Of a stretch of DNA of 64,000 nucleotides, positions 15,091 through 24,009 are shown one piece after another (position 1 is the stretch's first letter; each line of letters begins with the position of its first letter). A program made the position numbers and the translations under genes. The stretch is from positions 32,333 through 96,332 of the forward strand of contig JANXOP010000049.1 of the NCBI GenBank assembly GCA_025357755.1. Direction: 5' to 3'. Source of the DNA: Kofleriaceae bacterium. GTDB taxonomy: Bacteria > Myxococcota_A > Polyangia > Haliangiales > Haliangiaceae. Under the pieces are notes generated by a model, which was given only the letters and a program-made list of their open reading frames with translations, was not told the origin of the DNA and ran no database searches.

Positions 15091-17025
15091 ATGACGCTGA
15101 TCCTGGTGGTCGAAGACGAGGCGATCATCGCGCGCGACATCGCGTCGACGCTGACCGACCTCGGCTACGCCGTCGCGCCCGCCGTCGACTCGGCCGCGGG
15201 TGCGTTCGCCTCGATCTCGGCGGTCCGTCCCGATCTCGTACTGATGGACATCCGGCTTCGCGGCGAGCTCGACGGGATCGAGGCCGCGCACAGGATCCGC
15301 ACCTTGTTCGCGGTGCCGGTCGTGTTCCTCACGTCGCACGCCGACGAGCTCACGATCCAGCGCGCGAAGGGGGCGGGTGCGTATGGCTACGTGCTCAAGC
15401 CGTTCGGCGATCGCGATCTCCGCACCGCCATCGAAGTCGCGCTCGAGAAGCACGCGATCGAGCGCAGGATCTCGGAGCGCGAGCGCTGGTTCGCGACGAC
15501 GCTGCGCTCGATCGGCGATGCGGTGATCGCCACCGATCGCGATCAGCGGATCAGCTTCATGAATACGGTCGCGGAGCGGATCACCGGCTGGCCCAGCGCG
15601 GATGCCGTGGGGCGGCCACTCGGCGAGGTGCTCCGGCTCGTCCATGCCAAGACCGGGGTGGTGCTGCCATCCCCACTGACGCGCGCGTTCGAGCAGGGCG
15701 TCGCGGTCACCTTGCCGCGCGAGGCCGCGCTGCGTCCGCGCGTTGGCGAGCTGCTTGACGTCGATGACAGTGCCGCGCCGATCATCGATGATCAAGGCAA
15801 GCTGGTCGGCGGCGTCGTGATCTTTCGCGATGTCACCGAGCGCCGCGAGCTCGACGAGCGCCTCGCGCACAACGAACGGCTCGCCTCGATCGGCACGCTG
15901 TCTGCCGGCATGGCGCACGAGATCAACAACCCGCTCGCGTACGTGCTCGCGAACGTGACGCACGCGGTCGAGGCGCTACCCGAGCTCGAGGCTCGAGTCC
16001 GCGCGGTCGCCGGCGCGAGCGCGGAGACCGAGGCCCTTGTCGAAAAGCTCGAGGCCATGCGCGTGGCGCTGCGCGAGGCACAAGAGGGAAGCGAGCGCGT
16101 GCACGCGATCGTCCACGACCTCAAGAAGTTCGGGCGCGTCGATTCGCTCGCGCTGTCGCCAATCGGGCTCGTCGAGGCGATGAACGCGGCCATCCGGGCC
16201 CTCGCCAAGCGAGGGTTCGAGCCGCGGCTTCGCCGCGAGTTCGAGGTCGCTCCGTTCGTACTGGCGAATGCGAGCCAGCTCGAGCAGGTCTTCACGAACC
16301 TCTTGATCAATGCGTGCGAGGCCTCCCGCTCGCCCGATGACGAGATCCTGGTCAAGATCTTCACCGACGGCACCGGCCGAGCCGTCGTCCAGGTTCGCGA
16401 TCACGGCGTCGGCATCACGCCGGAGCTCCAGCGCCGGATCTTTGATCCCTTCTTCACGACCAAGGAGGTCGGCAAGGGCGTCGGGCTCGGCCTGTCGATC
16501 GCGCACAGCATTGTCGGTTCACTCGGTGGCGCGCTCACGGTGACCAGCGTCGCGGGCACCGGTTCGACGTTCCGCATCGTGTTTCCGGGAGTTCCGACCG
16601 ACGAGATCTTGATCGGCGCGGAGCCCAAACCAGCGCCCAAGCGGCGCGGGCGCGTGCTGGTGATCGATGACGAGCCGGCGATCGGACGCGCACTCACCCG
16701 CGTGCTGCAGGTCGATCATGACGTATTCATGGTCACCGCGGCACGCGAGGCCCTGGTCAGCATCTCGGCCGGCCAGGTGTTCGACATCATCCTGTGTGAC
16801 CTGATGATGCCGGAGATGACCGGGATGGACTTTCACGCGGTGCTCGCCCGTGACTGGCCGAGCCTGGTGTCGCGCATCGTCTTCGTCACCGGCGGAGCGC
16901 TGGGTGGCAGGGTGGGGACATTCCTCGACTCGGTCGGGAACCTGACCCTGGTCAAACCGGTCGCTCCCATAGACCTACGCGAGATCGTCACGAGCTACGT
17001 GAACAAAAACGAAGGGTCGGAGTAG
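15091..17025 (+). CDS. Hybrid REC-PAS-HisKA-HATPase-REC sensor kinase/response regulator
   Basis: ILVVEDEAIIARD...DLVLMDIRL (REC), PAS (ISFMNTVAERITGW), SAGMAHEINNPLAYV (H-box), NLLINACEA...DHGVGI...GKGVGLGL (N/G boxes), C-terminal REC (VLVIDDEP...DIILCDLMMPEMTG). ATG directly abuts the upstream stop (TAGATG). Confidence 0.9.
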   Translation: MTLILVVEDEAIIARDIASTLTDLGYAVAPAVDSAAGAFASISAVRPDLVLMDIRLRGELDGIEAAHRIRTLFAVPVVFLTSHADELTIQRAKGAGAYGYVLKPFGDRDLRTAIEVALEKHAIERRISERERWFATTLRSIGDAVIATDRDQRISFMNTVAERITGWPSADAVGRPLGEVLRLVHAKTGVVLPSPLTRAFEQGVAVTLPREAALRPRVGELLDVDDSAAPIIDDQGKLVGGVVIFRDVTERRELDERLAHNERLASIGTLSAGMAHEINNPLAYVLANVTHAVEALPELEARVRAVAGASAETEALVEKLEAMRVALREAQEGSERVHAIVHDLKKFGRVDSLALSPIGLVEAMNAAIRALAKRGFEPRLRREFEVAPFVLANASQLEQVFTNLLINACEASRSPDDEILVKIFTDGTGRAVVQVRDHGVGITPELQRRIFDPFFTTKEVGKGVGLGLSIAHSIVGSLGGALTVTSVAGTGSTFRIVFPGVPTDEILIGAEPKPAPKRRGRVLVIDDEPAIGRALTRVLQVDHDVFMVTAAREALVSISAGQVFDIILCDLMMPEMTGMDFHAVLARDWPSLVSRIVFVTGGALGGRVGTFLDSVGNLTLVKPVAPIDLREIVTSYVNKNEGSE

Positions 17026-17353: not shown

Positions 17354-18046
17354 TTACTTGTGGCTGTGACCGTCGTGCGAGTGGTCGTGATCGCGCCAGT
17401 TCGGGCCTTCACCGCCCTGCTTCGCCGTCGACTTGATGCCGCGCTTGAGCATCGACTGCAGCGTCTCGACCGCGTCGCCGCGATCTTCGACCGGACCGGC
17501 GTGCATGCCGGTATCCATGCGAATCGCGTCGCACGGACACGCTTCGACGCAGAGTCCGCAAACGACGCAGCGCAGCTCGTCGATCTCGAAGATCGCGGGG
17601 CGCTTCTCGATGCCCTTCGAGTCGCTCTCTTCCGGGACGATCGTGATGCAGTGCGCCGGGCACACGGTCGGGCAGCACATGCAGGCGACGCAACGAACGT
17701 TGCCGTCGTCTCGCATCAGCAAGCGATGGAGGCCGCGGAACCGCTCCGGGTACGTGACCTTCTCTTCCGGATACTGGATGGTTTCGATCTCGCTCCACGC
17801 CTTCGTCACGTCGGGTGCACCAGCCTTGGTGCGCTCGGCCTTCGAACGTAGAGGCGAGAACAAGTTCTTCGCGAAGTGTTTGAGCGTGATGCCGAAGCCC
17901 TTCGCGCCTGCCGCGAGGAACGTGGTGTCTTGCGCCTCGGGGCGAACGATCTGGACCGAGCGAACGACCTTGCCACCCGCGCTGGTGTGCGTAGCGAGGA
18001 TCTTCGGACCGGCTTCTTCTTCGACGTGTTCGTGTGATGACGACAT
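17354..18046 (-). CDS. nuoI: NADH-quinone oxidoreductase subunit I, with extended N-terminus and His-rich C-terminal tail
   Basis: Two 4Fe-4S motifs CVACMCCPTVCP and CVVCGLCVEACP, plus YPEEKVTYPERFRGLHRL. Tail is NWRDHDHSHDGHSHK. Confidence 0.9.
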   Translation of the reverse strand: MSSSHEHVEEEAGPKILATHTSAGGKVVRSVQIVRPEAQDTTFLAAGAKGFGITLKHFAKNLFSPLRSKAERTKAGAPDVTKAWSEIETIQYPEEKVTYPERFRGLHRLLMRDDGNVRCVACMCCPTVCPAHCITIVPEESDSKGIEKRPAIFEIDELRCVVCGLCVEACPCDAIRMDTGMHAGPVEDRGDAVETLQSMLKRGIKSTAKQGGEGPNWRDHDHSHDGHSHK

Positions 18047-18053
18047 AAAATCC

Positions 18054-19636
18054 TTACGCCATGAACAGAAGCTTGATGAGCGCCGTGAACATGATCCAGC
18101 CCAGCGCCGTGGGGAGCAGGACCTTCCAGCCGAGGTTCATCAGCTGATCCGCGCGGAAGCGGGGCAGCGTCCAGCGAACCATGAGCTGGAACCAGCACAA
18201 CAGGATCACCTTGAGACCGAACGCGGCGAACTGCAGCGCGACGACCGCGCCGTGCGGGAGGTGGAGGACCCAGCCGAGGTTGCCGACGCGGAAACCATCG
18301 GCATCGAGGAACGGCACCTGCCAGCCACCGAAGAATACGGTCGCGATGACCGACGCGATGAACACGACCTCGATGAACTCGGCGAGGAAGAAGATGCCCC
18401 AGCGCATGCCGGAGTACTCGACGAAGTAACCGATGATCTCGGGCTCGCCTTCCGGGATATCAAACGGTGCACGCTTGGTCTCGGCGATCGCGGCCGTGAA
18501 GAACAACACGAGACCGACTGGCTGCCACAACCAGAGCCAGTTGAGCGGATTCGAAGCCGACATCGTCTCGGTCGCGCCGTTCATGACGATCGCGCCGGGC
18601 TCGAGCGTGCCGCAGATCAGGAACACGCCAACGAGCGAGAGGCCCATCGACACTTCGTACGACATCATCTGCGACGAGCTGCGCAGGCCACCGAGGAGCG
18701 CCCACTTGTTGTAGGACGCCCAGCCGGCGATCGTGCCGCCGTAGTTCGCGAGCGTGAGCACCGCGAAGTAGAAGATCAGGCCGAAGTCGCACGAGAAGAC
18801 CTGCATCCGGATCGAATCCGCCGACAACGCCGCGGTCATCGTCGAAGGGTCGAGGACGTCGCGTACGACGTGAGGGTAGATCGTCGGGCCGAACGGGATG
18901 ATGCAGAACGCGATCAGCACCGGCGCGATCGCGATCAAAGGAGCGAGCGTGAACAAGCCCTTGTGGACGTTCGCCGGGATGAAGTCTTCCTTGAAGATCA
19001 TCTTCAGGGCGTCGGCGACGAAGTGCAGGATGCCCTTGAGCTTGATCGGGCCGATGTGGGCGCGATTCGGGCCGAGGCGATCCTGCATCATCGCGCTCTG
19101 GCGACGCTCGGCCCACGTGAGCAGCGACGCGAGCGGCATGATGAGGACGAGGATCAAGAAGACCCACTTGAGCGCGGCGTGATCGAGGACGCCGTAGATC
19201 AGCTCCGACCAGGCGTGGCGGACGTAGATCGTGCCGTCGGCGGTTGTCGAGTGAAAGCCGTATTCGCCGGCGGTCGCGAACTGGAAGCAGGACGGTGCCC
19301 CCGCGGTCTGCGGAATGGTGAAGGCCGGCGCGACGGTCTCGGTCGAATCGGACGATGCGTGACCGGGCGCGAACGACGTGCCCGGTGCGAACCGGACGAT
19401 GTCGCCCGGATGGATCGCGAGGCTGTTCGGCGTGAAGCCAGCATCGGTGCCGTTGATCGTGGTCGCGACGAAGTTGTTCTCGGTCGCGATGACCGGGCGC
19501 TCGCCCTTGGTGATCGGCTTGTCCGCTTGGGCCGGCTGGCCCTTGCCGATGCACGGCACGACCTTGACCGACGCAGGATCACCGCCGCCGCGGCAGGCCG
19601 CCGCCAACGCGAGCAGAAAGATAACTACACCACGCA

Positions 19637-19637
<1 letters not shown>
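18054..19637 (-). CDS. nuoH: NADH-quinone oxidoreductase subunit H fused to an N-terminal lipoprotein signal and a ~140-aa cupredoxin-like domain
   Basis: NuoH core starts near TWAERRQSAMMQDRLGPNR (residue ~175). No ATG/GTG/TTG lies just upstream of the core. ATG 19637 (MRGVVIFLLALAAAC) overlaps the nuoG stop (ATGA). Confidence 0.85.
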
Positions 19638-21255
<1,618 letters not shown>

Positions 21256-21259
<4 letters not shown>

Positions 21260-22518
21260 TTGTCGCACTCTCCACCGATCATATTGATCATGCCGAAGAT
21301 CGGCACGATGTCCGCGATGAAGTGACCCTTGAACAACATCTCCGCGGTCGAGAGATGCACGAACGCAGGGGAGCGGCAGTACGCCTTGTACGGGCGACCG
21401 GTGCCGTCGGCGACGATGAAGAAGCCGAGCTCGCCATTGCCGCCCTCGACGAACGAGTAGGCCTCGCCGGCGGGGACGCGCACGCCATCCATGATGTGCT
21501 TGAAGTGACGGATCATCGATTCGATCGTGTTGTACGTCGCGGCCTTCGGCGGCAACGCGACACGATGATCGTCCGACATGACCGGACCCTCGGGGAGCTG
21601 TACGAGACACTGCCGCAGCATCCGCATGCTCTGCTTGAGCTCTTCGAGCCGGACCAGATAGCGATCGTAACAATCACCGGTGGTGCCGAGCGGCACGTCG
21701 AACTCGAGCTCGGGATAGATCGAGTACGGGAAATCGCGGCGGACGTCGTAGTCGACGCCCGCCGAGCGCCCGATCGGGCCGACGCAGCCGGTGCGGATCG
21801 CGTCTTCCTTGGTGATCGCGCCGATGCCGGCCATCCGGTCGCGAAAGATCTTGTTGTTGCTCAACAGGTTCTCGCACTCGGTCATCACCTCGGCGGTGCG
21901 ATCGAGCAGGAGCGTGAGCTCGGGGCCGAAGTTCTCCGGCAGGTCCTTCGAGACGCCACCGATGCGGACGTAGCTATGCGTGAGGCGCGCACCCGAGACC
22001 TTCTCGAGCAGCTCGTACGCCCACTCGCGCGCCTTCAACAGATAGAGGAACGGCGTGAACGCGCCGAGCTCCATCGCGGAAGCGCCGACACACGTGAGGT
22101 GGTCGGTGATCCGCGACAGCTCGCTGACGATCACGCGGATGTACTCCGCGCGTCGCGGGATCTTGGTGGTGAGCCCCATCAACTTCTCGCAGGCCATCGC
22201 CCAGCCGCAGTTGTTGATCATCGGCGAGACGTAGTTGAGGCGGTCCGTGTACGGGAACACCTGCGTGTACGTCGCGTACTCGGCTTCCTTCTCGAAGCAA
22301 CGGTGGAGATACCCGGGCTGCACGTCGCCCTTGATGATCTTCTCGCCATCGACAGTGAGCACGATGCGCACGGTGCCATGCATCGCGGGATGCGACGGGC
22401 CCATGTTCACGGTCATCAGGTCGGGCGGCAGCTCCTGCTCGGTATCCGAGAGGTCCTGCACGTCCTTGCGACCGAGCACCAGCTGTTTCAACGTATGCGC
22501 GTCACCAGCTAGCGCCAT
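21256..22518 (-). CDS. nuoD: NADH-quinone oxidoreductase subunit D
   Basis: MTVNMGPSHPAMHGTVRIVL, LHRCFEK, DRLNYVSP, C-terminal IPIFGMINMIGGECDK. ATG 22518 overlaps the nuoC stop by 1 nt (TAATG). Confidence 0.95.
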
Positions 22519-23084
22519 TACTTGTGCTCCCCGGCGTGCGGCGCCTTGATCGGGTTGATGTTGAGATCGTCGCGACGCACGAGCGGCTGACGCTTGTCCT
22601 TCGGATAGTCCTTGCGGAGCGGATAGCCGACGAACTCTTCGTACAGATAGATCCGGCGCAAATCCGGGTGACCGTCGAAGCGGATGCCGTACATGTCGAA
22701 GGTCTCGCGCTCCTGCCAGTTGAACGCGGGCCACACGTCGGCGAGCGACGGACAGCGCGCATCGCTCTCCGGCAGCTCGATGCTGAGCCGGAGGCGGTGC
22801 TTGTGCGTGACCGAACGCAGCTGGTACGAGACCGTGTAGCGCGGCTTGCTCTCGTTCCAGGCTTCGCTCGGCGGACGACCTTGCGGCTTCCAGTCGATCC
22901 AATCGGTGCAGGTGCAGAACACCGGTGCATCGAACAGGGTCTTCGGATCATCGCGGAGCCACTTGGCAACCGCGACGAGCTCGTCGCGCTTGATCCATGC
23001 GGTCTCGTCGCCGTGAGCGGAGCTGGTGCGTACGACCGCGCCAGGCATTGCGGCCATCAGTGCGTCGAGGGCTTTTTGCGACAT
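22518..23084 (-). CDS. nuoC: NADH-quinone oxidoreductase subunit C
   Basis: MSQKALDAL... start at 23084 with GAGGAG 7 nt upstream. WPAFNWQERETFDMYGIRFDGHPDLRRI is the NuoC signature. Confidence 0.9.
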   Translation of the reverse strand: MSQKALDALMAAMPGAVVRTSSAHGDETAWIKRDELVAVAKWLRDDPKTLFDAPVFCTCTDWIDWKPQGRPPSEAWNESKPRYTVSYQLRSVTHKHRLRLSIELPESDARCPSLADVWPAFNWQERETFDMYGIRFDGHPDLRRIYLYEEFVGYPLRKDYPKDKRQPLVRRDDLNINPIKAPHAGEHK

Positions 23085-23101
23085 CGCTAGATACTCCTCG
23101 C

Positions 23102-23641
23102 CTACTCTTCGTTTTTCTGGGCGATCATTTGCTCGCGCTTCAAGCGGAGCTGGCTGTGACCGCGACCGTCTTGGATCCGATCCATCAGCATCATCAAAGC
23201 GTCGAGCACTTGCTCGGGACGTGGCGGGCAACCCGGGATGTAGACATCGACCGGGATGACCTGATCCGCGCCAGGCATCGCGTGATAGTTCTGATAGAAG
23301 CCGCCGGTCGACGCACACACGCCGAACGCGATCACCCACTTGGGCTCGGCCATCTGATCGAACACGCGCTTCAACGCCGGACCCTGCTTCTCGGTGACCG
23401 TGCCGACGATCATCAGCAGGTCGGACTGGCGCGGCGAGAACCGCGGGAACTCCGCACCGAACCGCGCGATGTCGTACTTCGGCGCGGCGACCGACATGAA
23501 CTCCATGCCGCAACACGCCGTGACGAACGGATACGTGAACAACGAGAACTTGCGACCCCAGTCGGGGACCCGCGAGAGCTGGCTACTCTTAGCCCACTTC
23601 GCGGCATCTTCGAGACGGGTCGTGGTGAGCTCTACTCCCAT
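23102..23641 (-). CDS. nuoB: NADH-quinone oxidoreductase subunit B
   Basis: FVTACCGMEFM, GVCASTGG and IPGCPPRP provide the N2 cluster cysteines. ATG 23641 overlaps the nuoA 3' end by 10 nt. Confidence 0.95.
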   Translation of the reverse strand: MGVELTTTRLEDAAKWAKSSQLSRVPDWGRKFSLFTYPFVTACCGMEFMSVAAPKYDIARFGAEFPRFSPRQSDLLMIVGTVTEKQGPALKRVFDQMAEPKWVIAFGVCASTGGFYQNYHAMPGADQVIPVDVYIPGCPPRPEQVLDALMMLMDRIQDGRGHSQLRLKREQMIAQKNEE

Positions 23642-24009
23642 CCGATTGCCTTCTTTCGCCAGACGTACGCCAGCGCGACGACGAGGATCGCGACGAACAG
23701 CAACATCTCGGCGAAGCCGAACACGCTGATCATCGGGAGACCTGCGGGTCCGATGGTGTGCGAGAGGTTGTTGTAGAGGACCGCCCACGGGTACATGAAC
23801 GCGGCCTCGATATCGAACACGAGGAACAAGATCGCGACTTGGTAGAACCGCACCGAGTAACGTCCTCGTGGCGATCCGATCGGCTCAGATCCGCATTCGA
23901 ACGGCTTGAGCTTCTCGGGGTTGGAGGCCTTTGGGCCGATCAACACTGCGAGCGCAGTGAAGAGGCCGCAAAACGCCAGGGCGAGAACGATGGCCACTCC
24001 GGCCGGCAT
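23632..24009 (-). CDS. nuoA: NADH-quinone oxidoreductase subunit A
   Basis: KLKPFECGSEPIGSPRGRYSVRFYQVAILFLVFDIEAAFMYPWA is the NuoA signature. ATG 24009 preferred; TTG 24027 is possible. Confidence 0.9.
   Translation of the reverse strand: MPAGVAIVLALAFCGLFTALAVLIGPKASNPEKLKPFECGSEPIGSPRGRYSVRFYQVAILFLVFDIEAAFMYPWAVLYNNLSHTIGPAGLPMISVFGFAEMLLFVAILVVALAYVWRKKAIGWE

Follow-up and report, generated by a model that had tools for sequence, protein, structure and literature searches.

The nuoH gene described here lies in a 64,000-nucleotide stretch of a Kofleriaceae bacterium contig (the window), within a complex I operon that Pfam assignments order as nuoB-C-D-G-H-I on the minus strand. Located between nuoG (19637..21200, minus strand, start approximate) and nuoI (17354..18046, minus strand, Pfam assigned, 7 nt downstream), nuoH occupies 18054..19637 on the minus strand and encodes 527 aa plus a stop codon, with no internal stop upon translation. 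The gene callers of public sources also call the 527-aa product. Pfam PF00146 matches this product at 322.4 bits against a cut-off of 27 (E = 3.8e-96) and only over residues 159-519 (18081..19163, minus strand), which form the NuoH/ND1 core. The NCBIfam NuoH equivalog cut-off is not reached (best model NF004741, 279.3 bits versus 305), a score to be read in the context of loop insertions that the NuoH of this lineage shares with extension-less relatives. The window genome, which is 89.9% complete, contains one PF00146 match and hence one nuoH, and neither a second nuoH nor a second copy of the domain described below was found in it.

Few membrane subunits of complex I are as conserved as NuoH/ND1, which forms the quinone channel and joins the two arms of the enzyme. 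Part of one report describes NuoH as strongly conserved, with alignments that are almost gap-free (PMC3144371). From residue ~145 onwards, the window protein is 76-85% identical to extension-less NuoH proteins of the genus, and its core motif TWAERRQSAMMQDRLGPNR begins at T174, in agreement with a preliminary description of this DNA that had placed the core at about residue 175. Ahead of the normal NuoH N-terminus, ~143 residues have been added; the distance from the start codon to the AERRQS loop is 175 residues in the window protein and 32-34 in ordinary NuoH of the genus. The junction and the normal N-terminus, then TM helix 1 (residues 155-173), span residues 141-173 (19119..19217, minus strand), where the ..SELIYGVLDHAALKW of the window NuoH is the counterpart of M(K/S)TLYAILDWPGTKW in ordinary NuoH of the genus.

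The nuoG stop codon (TGA, 19639-19637) and the nuoH start codon (ATG, 19637-19635) share a single nucleotide in a TGATG overlap, which indicates putative translational coupling of the two genes. The preliminary description had chosen the same ATG but wrote the overlap as ATGA, an arrangement that is present in the ortholog of G010 and not in the window. It had also quoted the upstream stretch as free of start codons, which is correct, as the window has no ATG, GTG, or TTG between codons -149 and -15 before AERRQS. The only start codons closer to the core are a TTG (-15) and an ATG (-9). Because both fall inside TM helix 1, a start at either would take away part of the helix. An internal start codon for a normal-length NuoH was therefore rejected, as none is suitable and the extension frame is under purifying selection. 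A broader form of this objection, already raised in the preliminary description, is that the extension is an artefact, either of a sequencing error that fuses two genes or of a noncanonical internal start that leaves the upstream part untranslated. Nothing was found in its favor. A GTG does lie internally, at the V of YVR and 37 codons ahead of the core, in 5/9 complete fused orthologs, but this codon is absent from the window and from G104, G005, and G014. Moreover, 11 genomes share the in-frame fusion although its sequence differs among them, so that a sequencing error is ruled out, and the fusion starts at the nuoG stop at all 11 loci. Codon-position GC (GC3 = 0.85 in the extension) together with the purifying selection makes an artefact of either kind scarcely credible. 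Comparison across these genomes shows that the nuoH product is one 527-aa polypeptide, its translation beginning at the ATG that overlaps the nuoG stop.

The extension opens with a lipoprotein-type signal peptide (residues 1-14, 19596..19637, minus strand), MRGVVIFLLALAAA followed by Cys, in which a positive n-region and an 11-residue h-region precede the lipobox Cys. This residue, C15 (19593..19595, minus strand), is predicted to be lipidated and to become the first residue after maturation. A lipobox Cys follows a short hydrophobic stretch at all 11 fused loci, and C15 is invariant in 18/18 aligned fused and free-standing relatives. The lipobox LAAAC that had been pointed out earlier is present within MRGVVIFLLALAAAC and fits a PROSITE-like rule, coded by hand, which 13/13 further cupredoxin-type NuoH proteins from the databases match as well. 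Judged from these features, the NuoH N-terminus is a carrier of a lipoprotein-type signal, with export and lipidation predicted. Alternatively, the hydrophobic stretch could remain uncleaved and unlipidated, forming an N-in helix 0 with the cupredoxin as a periplasmic loop before TM helix 1. Such a topology (N-in, loop out, TM helix 1 out-to-in) is equally consistent with the data, and lipobox position -3 in the window clade is a noncanonical Ala rather than Leu, Val, or Ile, whereas most other fused forms have a canonical residue there. However, the hydrophobic core, 11 residues long, is below the hydropathy threshold at which a 19-residue segment counts as TM, the adjoining Cys is kept even in free-standing proteins that have no other anchor, and the lipobox rule is matched by every cupredoxin-type NuoH protein surveyed. 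We consider an uncleaved helix 0 unlikely and the lipoprotein reading preferable.

Between the signal peptide and the junction lies a cupredoxin-derived domain, delimited by profiles, model, and alignment to approximately residues 21-140 (19218..19577, minus strand) and predicted to be periplasmic. Its ancestry was reached through intermediates. A Pfam scan of residues 1-160 gave no family at E<=10, leaving the window domain without a direct PF00127 match, an NCBIfam scan of the extension found nothing, and a word-indexed protein search with residues 1-155 returned just three close relatives, the query included. A profile of the fused domains, searched against 1.84 billion representatives, recovered 13 proteins at E<=1e-3, consisting of 5 NuoH fusions, 7 free lipoproteins of ~130 aa, and 1 unrelated repeat protein. 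Four of the seven free lipoproteins score above the PF00127 cut-off and a fifth above that of PF13473, and hhalign relates the fused to the free forms with a probability of 99.5% (E = 8.8e-23). Compared with PDB sequences, a joint profile had 54 matches, 53 of which are cupredoxins, with a plastocyanin as the best (E = 4.2e-5). The cupredoxin-like pattern noticed in the preliminary description is thus borne out by a chain from fused forms through free forms to the PF00127 and plastocyanin profiles, and the HMM search it proposed yields both the free lipoproteins and the further NuoH fusions.

The predicted structure agrees with this ancestry. The domain models as a Greek-key beta-sandwich (AF2, pLDDT 76.9, pTM 0.71), the same fold as that of the amicyanin/plastocyanin/pseudoazurin family (PF00127) to which its profile is homologous. 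With this model as the query, the best 50 Foldseek matches are all plastocyanins, pseudoazurins, or amicyanins. Among 48,161 chains compared by VIA-align, plastocyanin 7zqe_M and amicyanin 1aac match at a Z score of 9.2 and an rmsd of 2.4 A, and ranks 1-19 are cupredoxin-fold proteins throughout. Amicyanin aligns over model residues 8-126, the extra N-terminal strand included. The free relatives have a short ligand loop of the form C-x-P-H-x-x-M/F, which we take to resemble that of amicyanin. These comparisons show that the extension derives from a group of small lipoproteins, similar to amicyanin, that the same bacterial family encodes and that the module keeps their signal peptide, lipobox Cys, cupredoxin fold, and Cys pair. 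A full-length AlphaFold2 model built from a 27-sequence alignment (mean pLDDT 45.2, pTM 0.28) scores too low to place the domain on NuoH.

What the fused domain has lost is its copper site. The H...C-x2-H arrangement is kept in 5/7 free forms, whereas in 11/11 fused forms none of the four ligands (the two His, the Cys, and the axial one) is left, and the ligand columns hold S/A/T/Q, S/T, and other residues. The replacement of the copper ligands stated in the preliminary description is therefore real and conserved. With His, Cys, His, and Met all replaced, the NuoH-borne domain cannot be a type-1 copper electron carrier. Other positions have been retained with great constancy. Residues C29, C117, G92, H93, and D97 are invariant in 18/18 fused and free sequences, and P91 and H129 are nearly so (17/18 each); GEYGxH and TxYVR are fixed among the fused forms, in which E125 is conserved too. 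The invariant cysteines probably form a C29-C117 disulfide. Since G92, H93, D97, and H129 are conserved in fused and free forms alike, a purely structural role leaves them unexplained, and they could mark a candidate binding site.

This conservation allows a reading in which the domain is not inert and its conserved surface (H93, D97, H129, and E125 in the fused forms) binds a non-type-1 metal or docks a periplasmic partner. Such a partner might be, for example, an envelope protein, a cytochrome, or a further respiratory complex, and complex I would gain a periplasmic input or contact. In addition to the near-invariance of four residues of which none is a classical copper ligand, and to the motifs fixed in the fused forms, cytochrome c oxidase subunit II of G082 begins with a homologous ligand-less domain, which could mean a role common to respiratory complexes. 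However, the surface appears not to be needed at this position, as unrelated modules occupy the same NuoH junction in other genomes (see below), and the genes next to the free homologs offer no evident partner. In 5/7 loci the adjoining gene is LysM/SLT murein transglycosylase-like, and no respiratory, copper, or evident partner gene was found beside the free homologs at any of the seven. We regard a functional surface of this kind as rather unlikely, although it is the foremost of the alternatives to an accessory domain without redox function.

Whether related NuoH orthologs carry the same extension had been left as a question by the preliminary description. Of the 129 family genomes in which NuoH was matched, 11 have cupredoxin-NuoH, mostly as one clade. 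In a further nine genomes of the same genus, unrelated Cys-rich lipobox extensions, for which a Pfam scan gave nothing significant, are attached at the same NuoH junction, and one genome of another genus has a NuoH with a bare lipobox and a 12-residue linker there. At least 108 of the 129 genomes have no such extension, and the module is thus dispensable for complex I as such. The occurrence of cupredoxin, Cys-rich, and bare-lipobox forms at one junction implies that the NuoH N-terminus has acquired lipoprotein modules repeatedly. This recurrence within the genus is a point beyond the preliminary description, which dealt with the window protein.

A sparse distribution might also be expected if the extension were a near-neutral accident, in which a lipoprotein gene was inserted between nuoG and nuoH, the stop codon was lost, and a decaying domain has since been idle. 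The loss of the copper ligands, the absence of the extension from most relatives, and the faster evolution of the domain (41-46% identity between the window and more distant fused forms, versus 70-78% over the whole protein) all point that way. However, dN/dS is well under 1 in 6/6 pairwise comparisons, at 0.05-0.34 in the extension versus 0.04-0.20 in the core, and on these ratios the ~120-aa domain is under purifying selection. Across a fused clade that has diverged to ~43% domain identity, the domain has remained intact, in frame, and foldable, with ~19 invariant positions that include the Cys pair, and the fact that other modules were added there independently is a further sign of selection. 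We therefore hold a neutral accident to be improbable. Because unrelated Cys-rich modules and a bare lipobox fill the same junction in relatives, selection seems to favor the presence there of a folded module with a lipid anchor and not copper chemistry.

A periplasmic location of the domain is consistent with its signal peptide, with the invariance of the Cys pair, and with a positive-inside pattern, as the loop after TM helix 1 contains 9 K+R. The NuoH N-terminus probably lies on the periplasmic side of the membrane (N-out). The published passages available to us contain no explicit statement on this side, but the same orientation can be deduced because part of one account of solved structures gives the TMH1-2 and TMH5-6 loops as cytoplasmic (PMC11522691). 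In the pathway that we propose, the signal peptide would direct the N-terminus through Sec, Lgt and LspA would lipidate and cleave it at C15, and the ~120-aa domain would fold in the periplasm with formation of the C29-C117 disulfide. TM helix 1 would then act as a stop-transfer sequence and leave NuoH in its usual N-out orientation. After maturation, the subunit would be an ordinary NuoH whose first helix is extended periplasmically by a redox-inactive beta-sandwich, lipid-pinned to the outer leaflet, and the module may steady or position this helix as well as the heel of NuoH on its periplasmic face during assembly or operation. Its covalent fusion to NuoH would place it in the assembled enzyme. 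Taken as a whole, a non-redox, lipid-anchored periplasmic accessory domain on NuoH is the best explanation and a fairly probable one. The function assigned to it, that of a built-in, supernumerary-like accessory module and no electron carrier, we would as readily doubt as defend.

The first NuoH helix borders the quinone entry. At least two unrelated kinds of module and one bare lipid anchor share the junction before it, which suggests that this helix gains from being held from outside. In Escherichia coli, TM helix 1 of NuoH is described, in part of one report, as invisible in cryo-EM, suggesting mobility (PMC8357420).

The closest parallel in build to cupredoxin-NuoH is the lipoprotein subunit II of quinol oxidases (CyoA/QoxA), and the CyoA periplasmic fragment 1cyx is among the fold matches of the domain (Z 5.0). 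As can be gathered from the entry title "engineered Cu-A binding site," the native quinol-oxidase subunit II has also lost its copper site. CtaC and QoxA of Bacillus and CyoA of E. coli likewise combine a lipoprotein signal, TM helices, and a periplasmic cupredoxin-fold domain, and CtaC and QoxA appear in a passage of the literature as lipoproteins that also have membrane-spanning helices (PMC13068155). Unlike the oxidase subunits, however, NuoH belongs to complex I, its cupredoxin precedes the helices and directly follows the lipid anchor, the domain comes from mononuclear type-1 proteins and not from CuA domains, and a substrate-binding role is not evident for it. The contrast with blue copper proteins is of another kind, as these are soluble, whereas the NuoH-borne domain is the N-terminal part of a polytopic membrane subunit and has its ligands replaced. 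By analogy only, the domain can be set beside NDUFA8 and NDUFS5 of mitochondrial complex I, which are disulfide-containing, noncatalytic, and located on the P side; they differ from it in sequence and fold, are separate polypeptides, and have no lipid anchor. Part of one source states that these two subunits stabilize the membrane domain, and it reports the bacterial accessory subunits of complex I on the cytoplasmic side (PMC11522691).

Our literature search found no description of a NuoH with such an N-terminal domain. To our knowledge, the accessory parts described so far for bacterial complex I are cytoplasmic, and we know of no feature that gives it a periplasmic signal or physical link. 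With a folded domain in the periplasm, probably anchored by a lipid, such a NuoH would be a bacterial equivalent, in simple form, of the mitochondrial P-side supernumerary subunits, and it is a clear case of a redox protein put to structural use. A bolder proposal is that the periplasmic N-terminus of NuoH in Kofleriaceae-like Myxococcota is a docking point for exchangeable lipid-anchored modules, with the His/His/Asp surface of the cupredoxin module binding a metal or a partner. We think it unlikely, but if true, complex I would receive a signal from, or be linked physically to, the periplasm or another respiratory complex. The domain also offers a natural handle on the complex I heel as a tag site, antibody target, or cryo-EM fiducial.

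The free homologs are not confined to genomes that lack the fusion. A complementary distribution of free and fused forms was considered and rejected, as free homologs accompany the fusion in 3 of the 11 genomes that have it and occur in 20 of 80 further genomes of the genus included in the search.

The nuoH gene (18054 to 19637, minus strand) lies with nuoB, nuoC, nuoD, nuoG, and nuoI, all identified by Pfam on the minus strand of the window. Its frame is open far upstream of the relevant start, the ATG at 19637 to 19635, whose A is also the last base of the nuoG TGA (19639 to 19637). The junction is TGATG, not the ATGA overlap given in the preliminary description, which is the type present in the G010 ortholog; the remaining sequence details of that description hold. 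The product (P0001) is 527 residues, with PF00146 spanning residues 159 to 519 (E = 3.8e-96) and zero Pfam matches at E<=10 for residues 1 to 160 alone. NCBIfam NuoH models align from approximately residue 155, all under their equivalog cutoffs (best, 279 versus 305 bits).

We find that the roughly 143-residue extension is translated as part of NuoH, as a single polypeptide from the ATG at the nuoG stop, as was originally proposed. Extension-less NuoH proteins of the same genus start M(K/S)TLYAILDWPGTKW.., 32 to 34 residues ahead of the AERRQS loop that opens the NuoH core, likewise at the nuoG stop. In the window, no ATG, GTG, or TTG occurs from 149 to 15 codons before this loop, and the two start candidates nearer to it both fall within transmembrane (TM) helix 1. 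The extension has a third-position GC of 0.85, and the core one of 0.91. Among four co-linear orthologs, dN/dS (Nei-Gojobori) is 0.05 to 0.34 for residues 16 to 143 in 6/6 pairs and 0.04 to 0.20 for the core; purifying selection acts on the extension. The window's genome (G000), at 89.9% completeness, contains a single nuoH and no second copy of the domain at E<=1. The in-frame fusion is found in 11 genomes (G000, G005, G104, G119, G010, G007, G014, G095, G076, G113, and G117) and starts at the nuoG stop in every case, through TGATG, ATGA, or TAATG; the G113 gene has a downstream frameshift, and that of G117 runs off the contig end. The start-codon gap, third-position GC, dN/dS, single nuoH, and recurrence of the same fusion exclude, for practical purposes, both a sequencing artefact and a leader that is not translated. 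The window has no internal start that would give a normal NuoH, and the occurrence of one fusion in 11 genomes rules out an error joining two genes.

The description of the extension as cupredoxin-like was right, as profile links, PDB matches, and predicted fold agree. The family is narrow: searching 1.84 billion representative proteins with a mature-domain profile (A2, 5 sequences) gave only 13 matches at E<=1e-3. Five are NuoH fusions or pieces of such fusions, seven are free-standing proteins of 128 to 145 aa that carry a lipobox too, and one is an unrelated repeat protein. Four of the seven free forms pass the PF00127 (plastocyanin/azurin) cutoff and a fifth passes that of PF13473. Fused (A5, 11 sequences) and free (A6, 7 sequences) profiles align over 93 columns with 99.5% probability (E = 8.8e-23). 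The joint profile (A3) has 54 matches at E<=1 among all PDB sequences (best, plastocyanin at 4.2e-5), 53 of which are plastocyanins, pseudoazurins, amicyanins, nitrosocyanin, or nitrite reductase cupredoxin domains. Structure prediction of the domain only (AlphaFold2, residues 15 to 143; pLDDT 76.9, pTM 0.71) gave a cupredoxin fold: the top 50 Foldseek matches in the PDB are all small blue copper proteins (best E = 3.2e-4), and an independent all-against-all aligner ranks cupredoxin-fold proteins throughout places 1 to 19, including plastocyanin 7zqe_M and amicyanin 1aac (Z 9.2, rmsd 2.4 A, 79 and 86 residues aligned). The match to free lipobox cupredoxins allows the source to be named: a cupredoxin gene of the same lineage, encoding a lipoprotein, was taken up between nuoG and nuoH with its signal peptide. 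At five of the seven free-cupredoxin loci (L018, L019, L020, L026, and L033), the gene directly adjoins a LysM/SLT-domain (murein transglycosylase-like) gene and no respiratory or copper-handling gene.

In an 18-sequence alignment (11 fused, 7 free), 5/7 free proteins retain the classical ligands, tHNV.PGH followed by C-x-x-H-x-(F/M). In all 11 fused forms, the first His is replaced by S, A, T, or Q and the Cys by S or T, the second His is absent, and the loop is shortened. The ligand loss noticed in the window thus extends to every fused form, and the alignment shows a NuoH-borne domain without a type-1 copper site. The lipobox Cys, C29, C117, G92, H93, D97, G124, G127, and T136 are invariant in 18/18 sequences, and P91, Y126, H129, and V139 are nearly so; C29 and C117 probably form a disulfide. 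A purely structural role for the domain would leave unexplained the role of H93 and D97, and of the nearly invariant H129, which the fused forms have in common with copper-binding free forms.

In all 11 fused forms, the protein begins with a positive n-region followed by a short hydrophobic stretch and a lipobox Cys, and a PROSITE-like lipobox rule is satisfied by the window protein and 13/13 other cupredoxin-type NuoH database proteins. These features establish a lipoprotein-type signal on NuoH, as first read from the window. The hydrophobic stretch in the window is 11 residues, under the threshold for a 19-residue TM segment; the first segment above threshold is 155 to 173, followed by a 55-residue loop whose 9 K+R match expectation for a cytoplasmic loop. 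The NuoH N-terminus is probably periplasmic. Here, it would be exported via Sec, lipidated and cleaved at C15, and the domain would fold in the periplasm, stabilised by the disulfide, with TM helix 1 acting as a stop-transfer segment and oriented as usual. Solved structures give this orientation through their loop positions: according to PMC11522691, the quinone site at the hydrophilic-arm interface is lined by the ND1 TMH1-2 loop (Arg38, Trp41) and TMH5-6 loop. The K+R pattern agrees.

A NuoH match was found in 129/138 genomes of the family. The same extension was sought in these related orthologs, as had been suggested, and the cupredoxin form occurs in 11 of the 129 NuoH-bearing genomes, all members of the genus to which the window belongs. 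Core sequences in 27 rows (12 fused, 15 extension-less) were used for a maximum-likelihood tree; outside it stand G113 and G117 (incomplete), the G075 and G110 loci (off the contig end), locus L061 of G071 (extension-less, missed by the motif pattern), and all Cys-rich forms. A branch whose SH-aLRT support is 99% has 11 of the 12 fused rows on the same side, and the G076 row is basal, its placement unresolved; cupredoxin-NuoH may have had a single origin. Identity between the window and more distant fused forms is 41 to 46% in the domain and 70 to 78% over the whole protein: the domain has diverged far more than the rest of NuoH. Locus L048 (G115) encodes an extension-less NuoH that the tree places close to the root of the fused clade, and its N-terminus (MNIYSILDSAAVKWVF) is nearer the fused post-domain segment (..ILDSAAVKWVF) than the usual ..ILDWPGTKW. 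It may represent secondary loss of the domain.

A database search with the core only recovered further long NuoH proteins, P0064, P0067, P0068, P0104, P0112, and P0123 (490 to 505 aa) and P0109 (608 aa), whose extensions are not cupredoxin-related and consist of a lipobox signal followed by a Cys-rich region of 80 to 200 aa without a match in a Pfam scan. Such extensions occur at the same junction as the cupredoxin in nine genomes of the window's genus (G098, G108, G012, G004, G062, G002, G092, G009, and G070; loci L064, L067, L068, L073 to L075, L077, L078, and L080), a count that partly depends on G009 and G070, both flagged unpublished. In G121 (L083), of another genus, a lipobox signal and 12-residue linker alone precede the normal N-terminus, and ten other candidates (G017, G078, G066, G060, G018, G048, G042, G065, G115, and G075) have no extension. 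Lipobox NuoH of these three kinds is present in at least 21/129 NuoH-bearing family genomes, in a survey of stop-to-stop frames of >=451 aa; frames of <=450 aa could conceal further short forms. The cupredoxin is one of several lipobox modules that this lineage has attached to NuoH at a single site. Public annotation names all of these proteins just NuoH or [quoted passage not shown]

The original interpretation, a lipid-anchored periplasmic accessory domain on complex I, is supported, with function inferred only. The extension could equally well be, or not be, a built-in redox-inactive accessory module holding the first helix and periplasmic face of the NuoH heel. This proposal is made because interchangeable modules occupy the same site; it also draws on reports that E. 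coli NuoH residues 1 to 52, TM helix 1 included, are invisible in cryo-EM (PMC8357420) and that P-side elements in other species are credited with stabilising the membrane domain (PMC11522691).

By ancestry and predicted fold, the NuoH-borne domain belongs to the cupredoxin superfamily. In function it does not count among the copper-binding plastocyanin/azurin proteins, since a check of the alignment shows that it lacks their defining ligands. In architecture, the nearest parallel to extended NuoH is haem-copper oxidase subunit II; quinol-oxidase subunit II has likewise lost its copper. CtaC and QoxA are described in PMC13068155 as lipoproteins that also have membrane-spanning helices, together with a cupredoxin domain in the periplasm, and its authors call the benefit of the lipid anchor unclear. 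NuoH aligns nearly gap-free across prokaryotes, according to PMC3144371. We found no published description of such a NuoH in full-text literature on NuoH or complex I in connection with cupredoxins, N-terminal extensions, lipoprotein signals, or Myxococcota. What the window encodes is a complex I core subunit to which a copper-less, probably lipid-anchored cupredoxin domain is fused.

In G082, of the same genus, where NuoH has no match at E<=1e-20, cytochrome c oxidase subunit II (550 aa; L034:1108-2760, plus strand) has COX2_TM, COX2, and cytochrome c domains. It also carries a signal peptide, a linker of low complexity, and, at its N-terminus, a homologue of the copper-less cupredoxin domain of NuoH (hhalign, 97% versus the fused set and 96% versus the free set), in which the ligand Cys is Ser. 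In the window, the nuo order is nuoB-C-D-G-H-I (19637 to 23788, minus strand), and nuoD and nuoG are not separated by nuoE or nuoF; the genome has a NuoF-type gene (PF01512) on a different contig (C420, L070). NuoI (17354 to 18046, minus strand) is long, at 230 aa, with about 100 residues ahead of two 4Fe-4S motifs and a histidine-rich C-terminal tail (..RDHDHSHDGHSHK). The next gene after nuoI is convergent with it (15091 to 17025, plus strand) and encodes a 644-aa hybrid with a receiver domain at both ends and PAS and histidine-kinase motifs between them, as read by eye.
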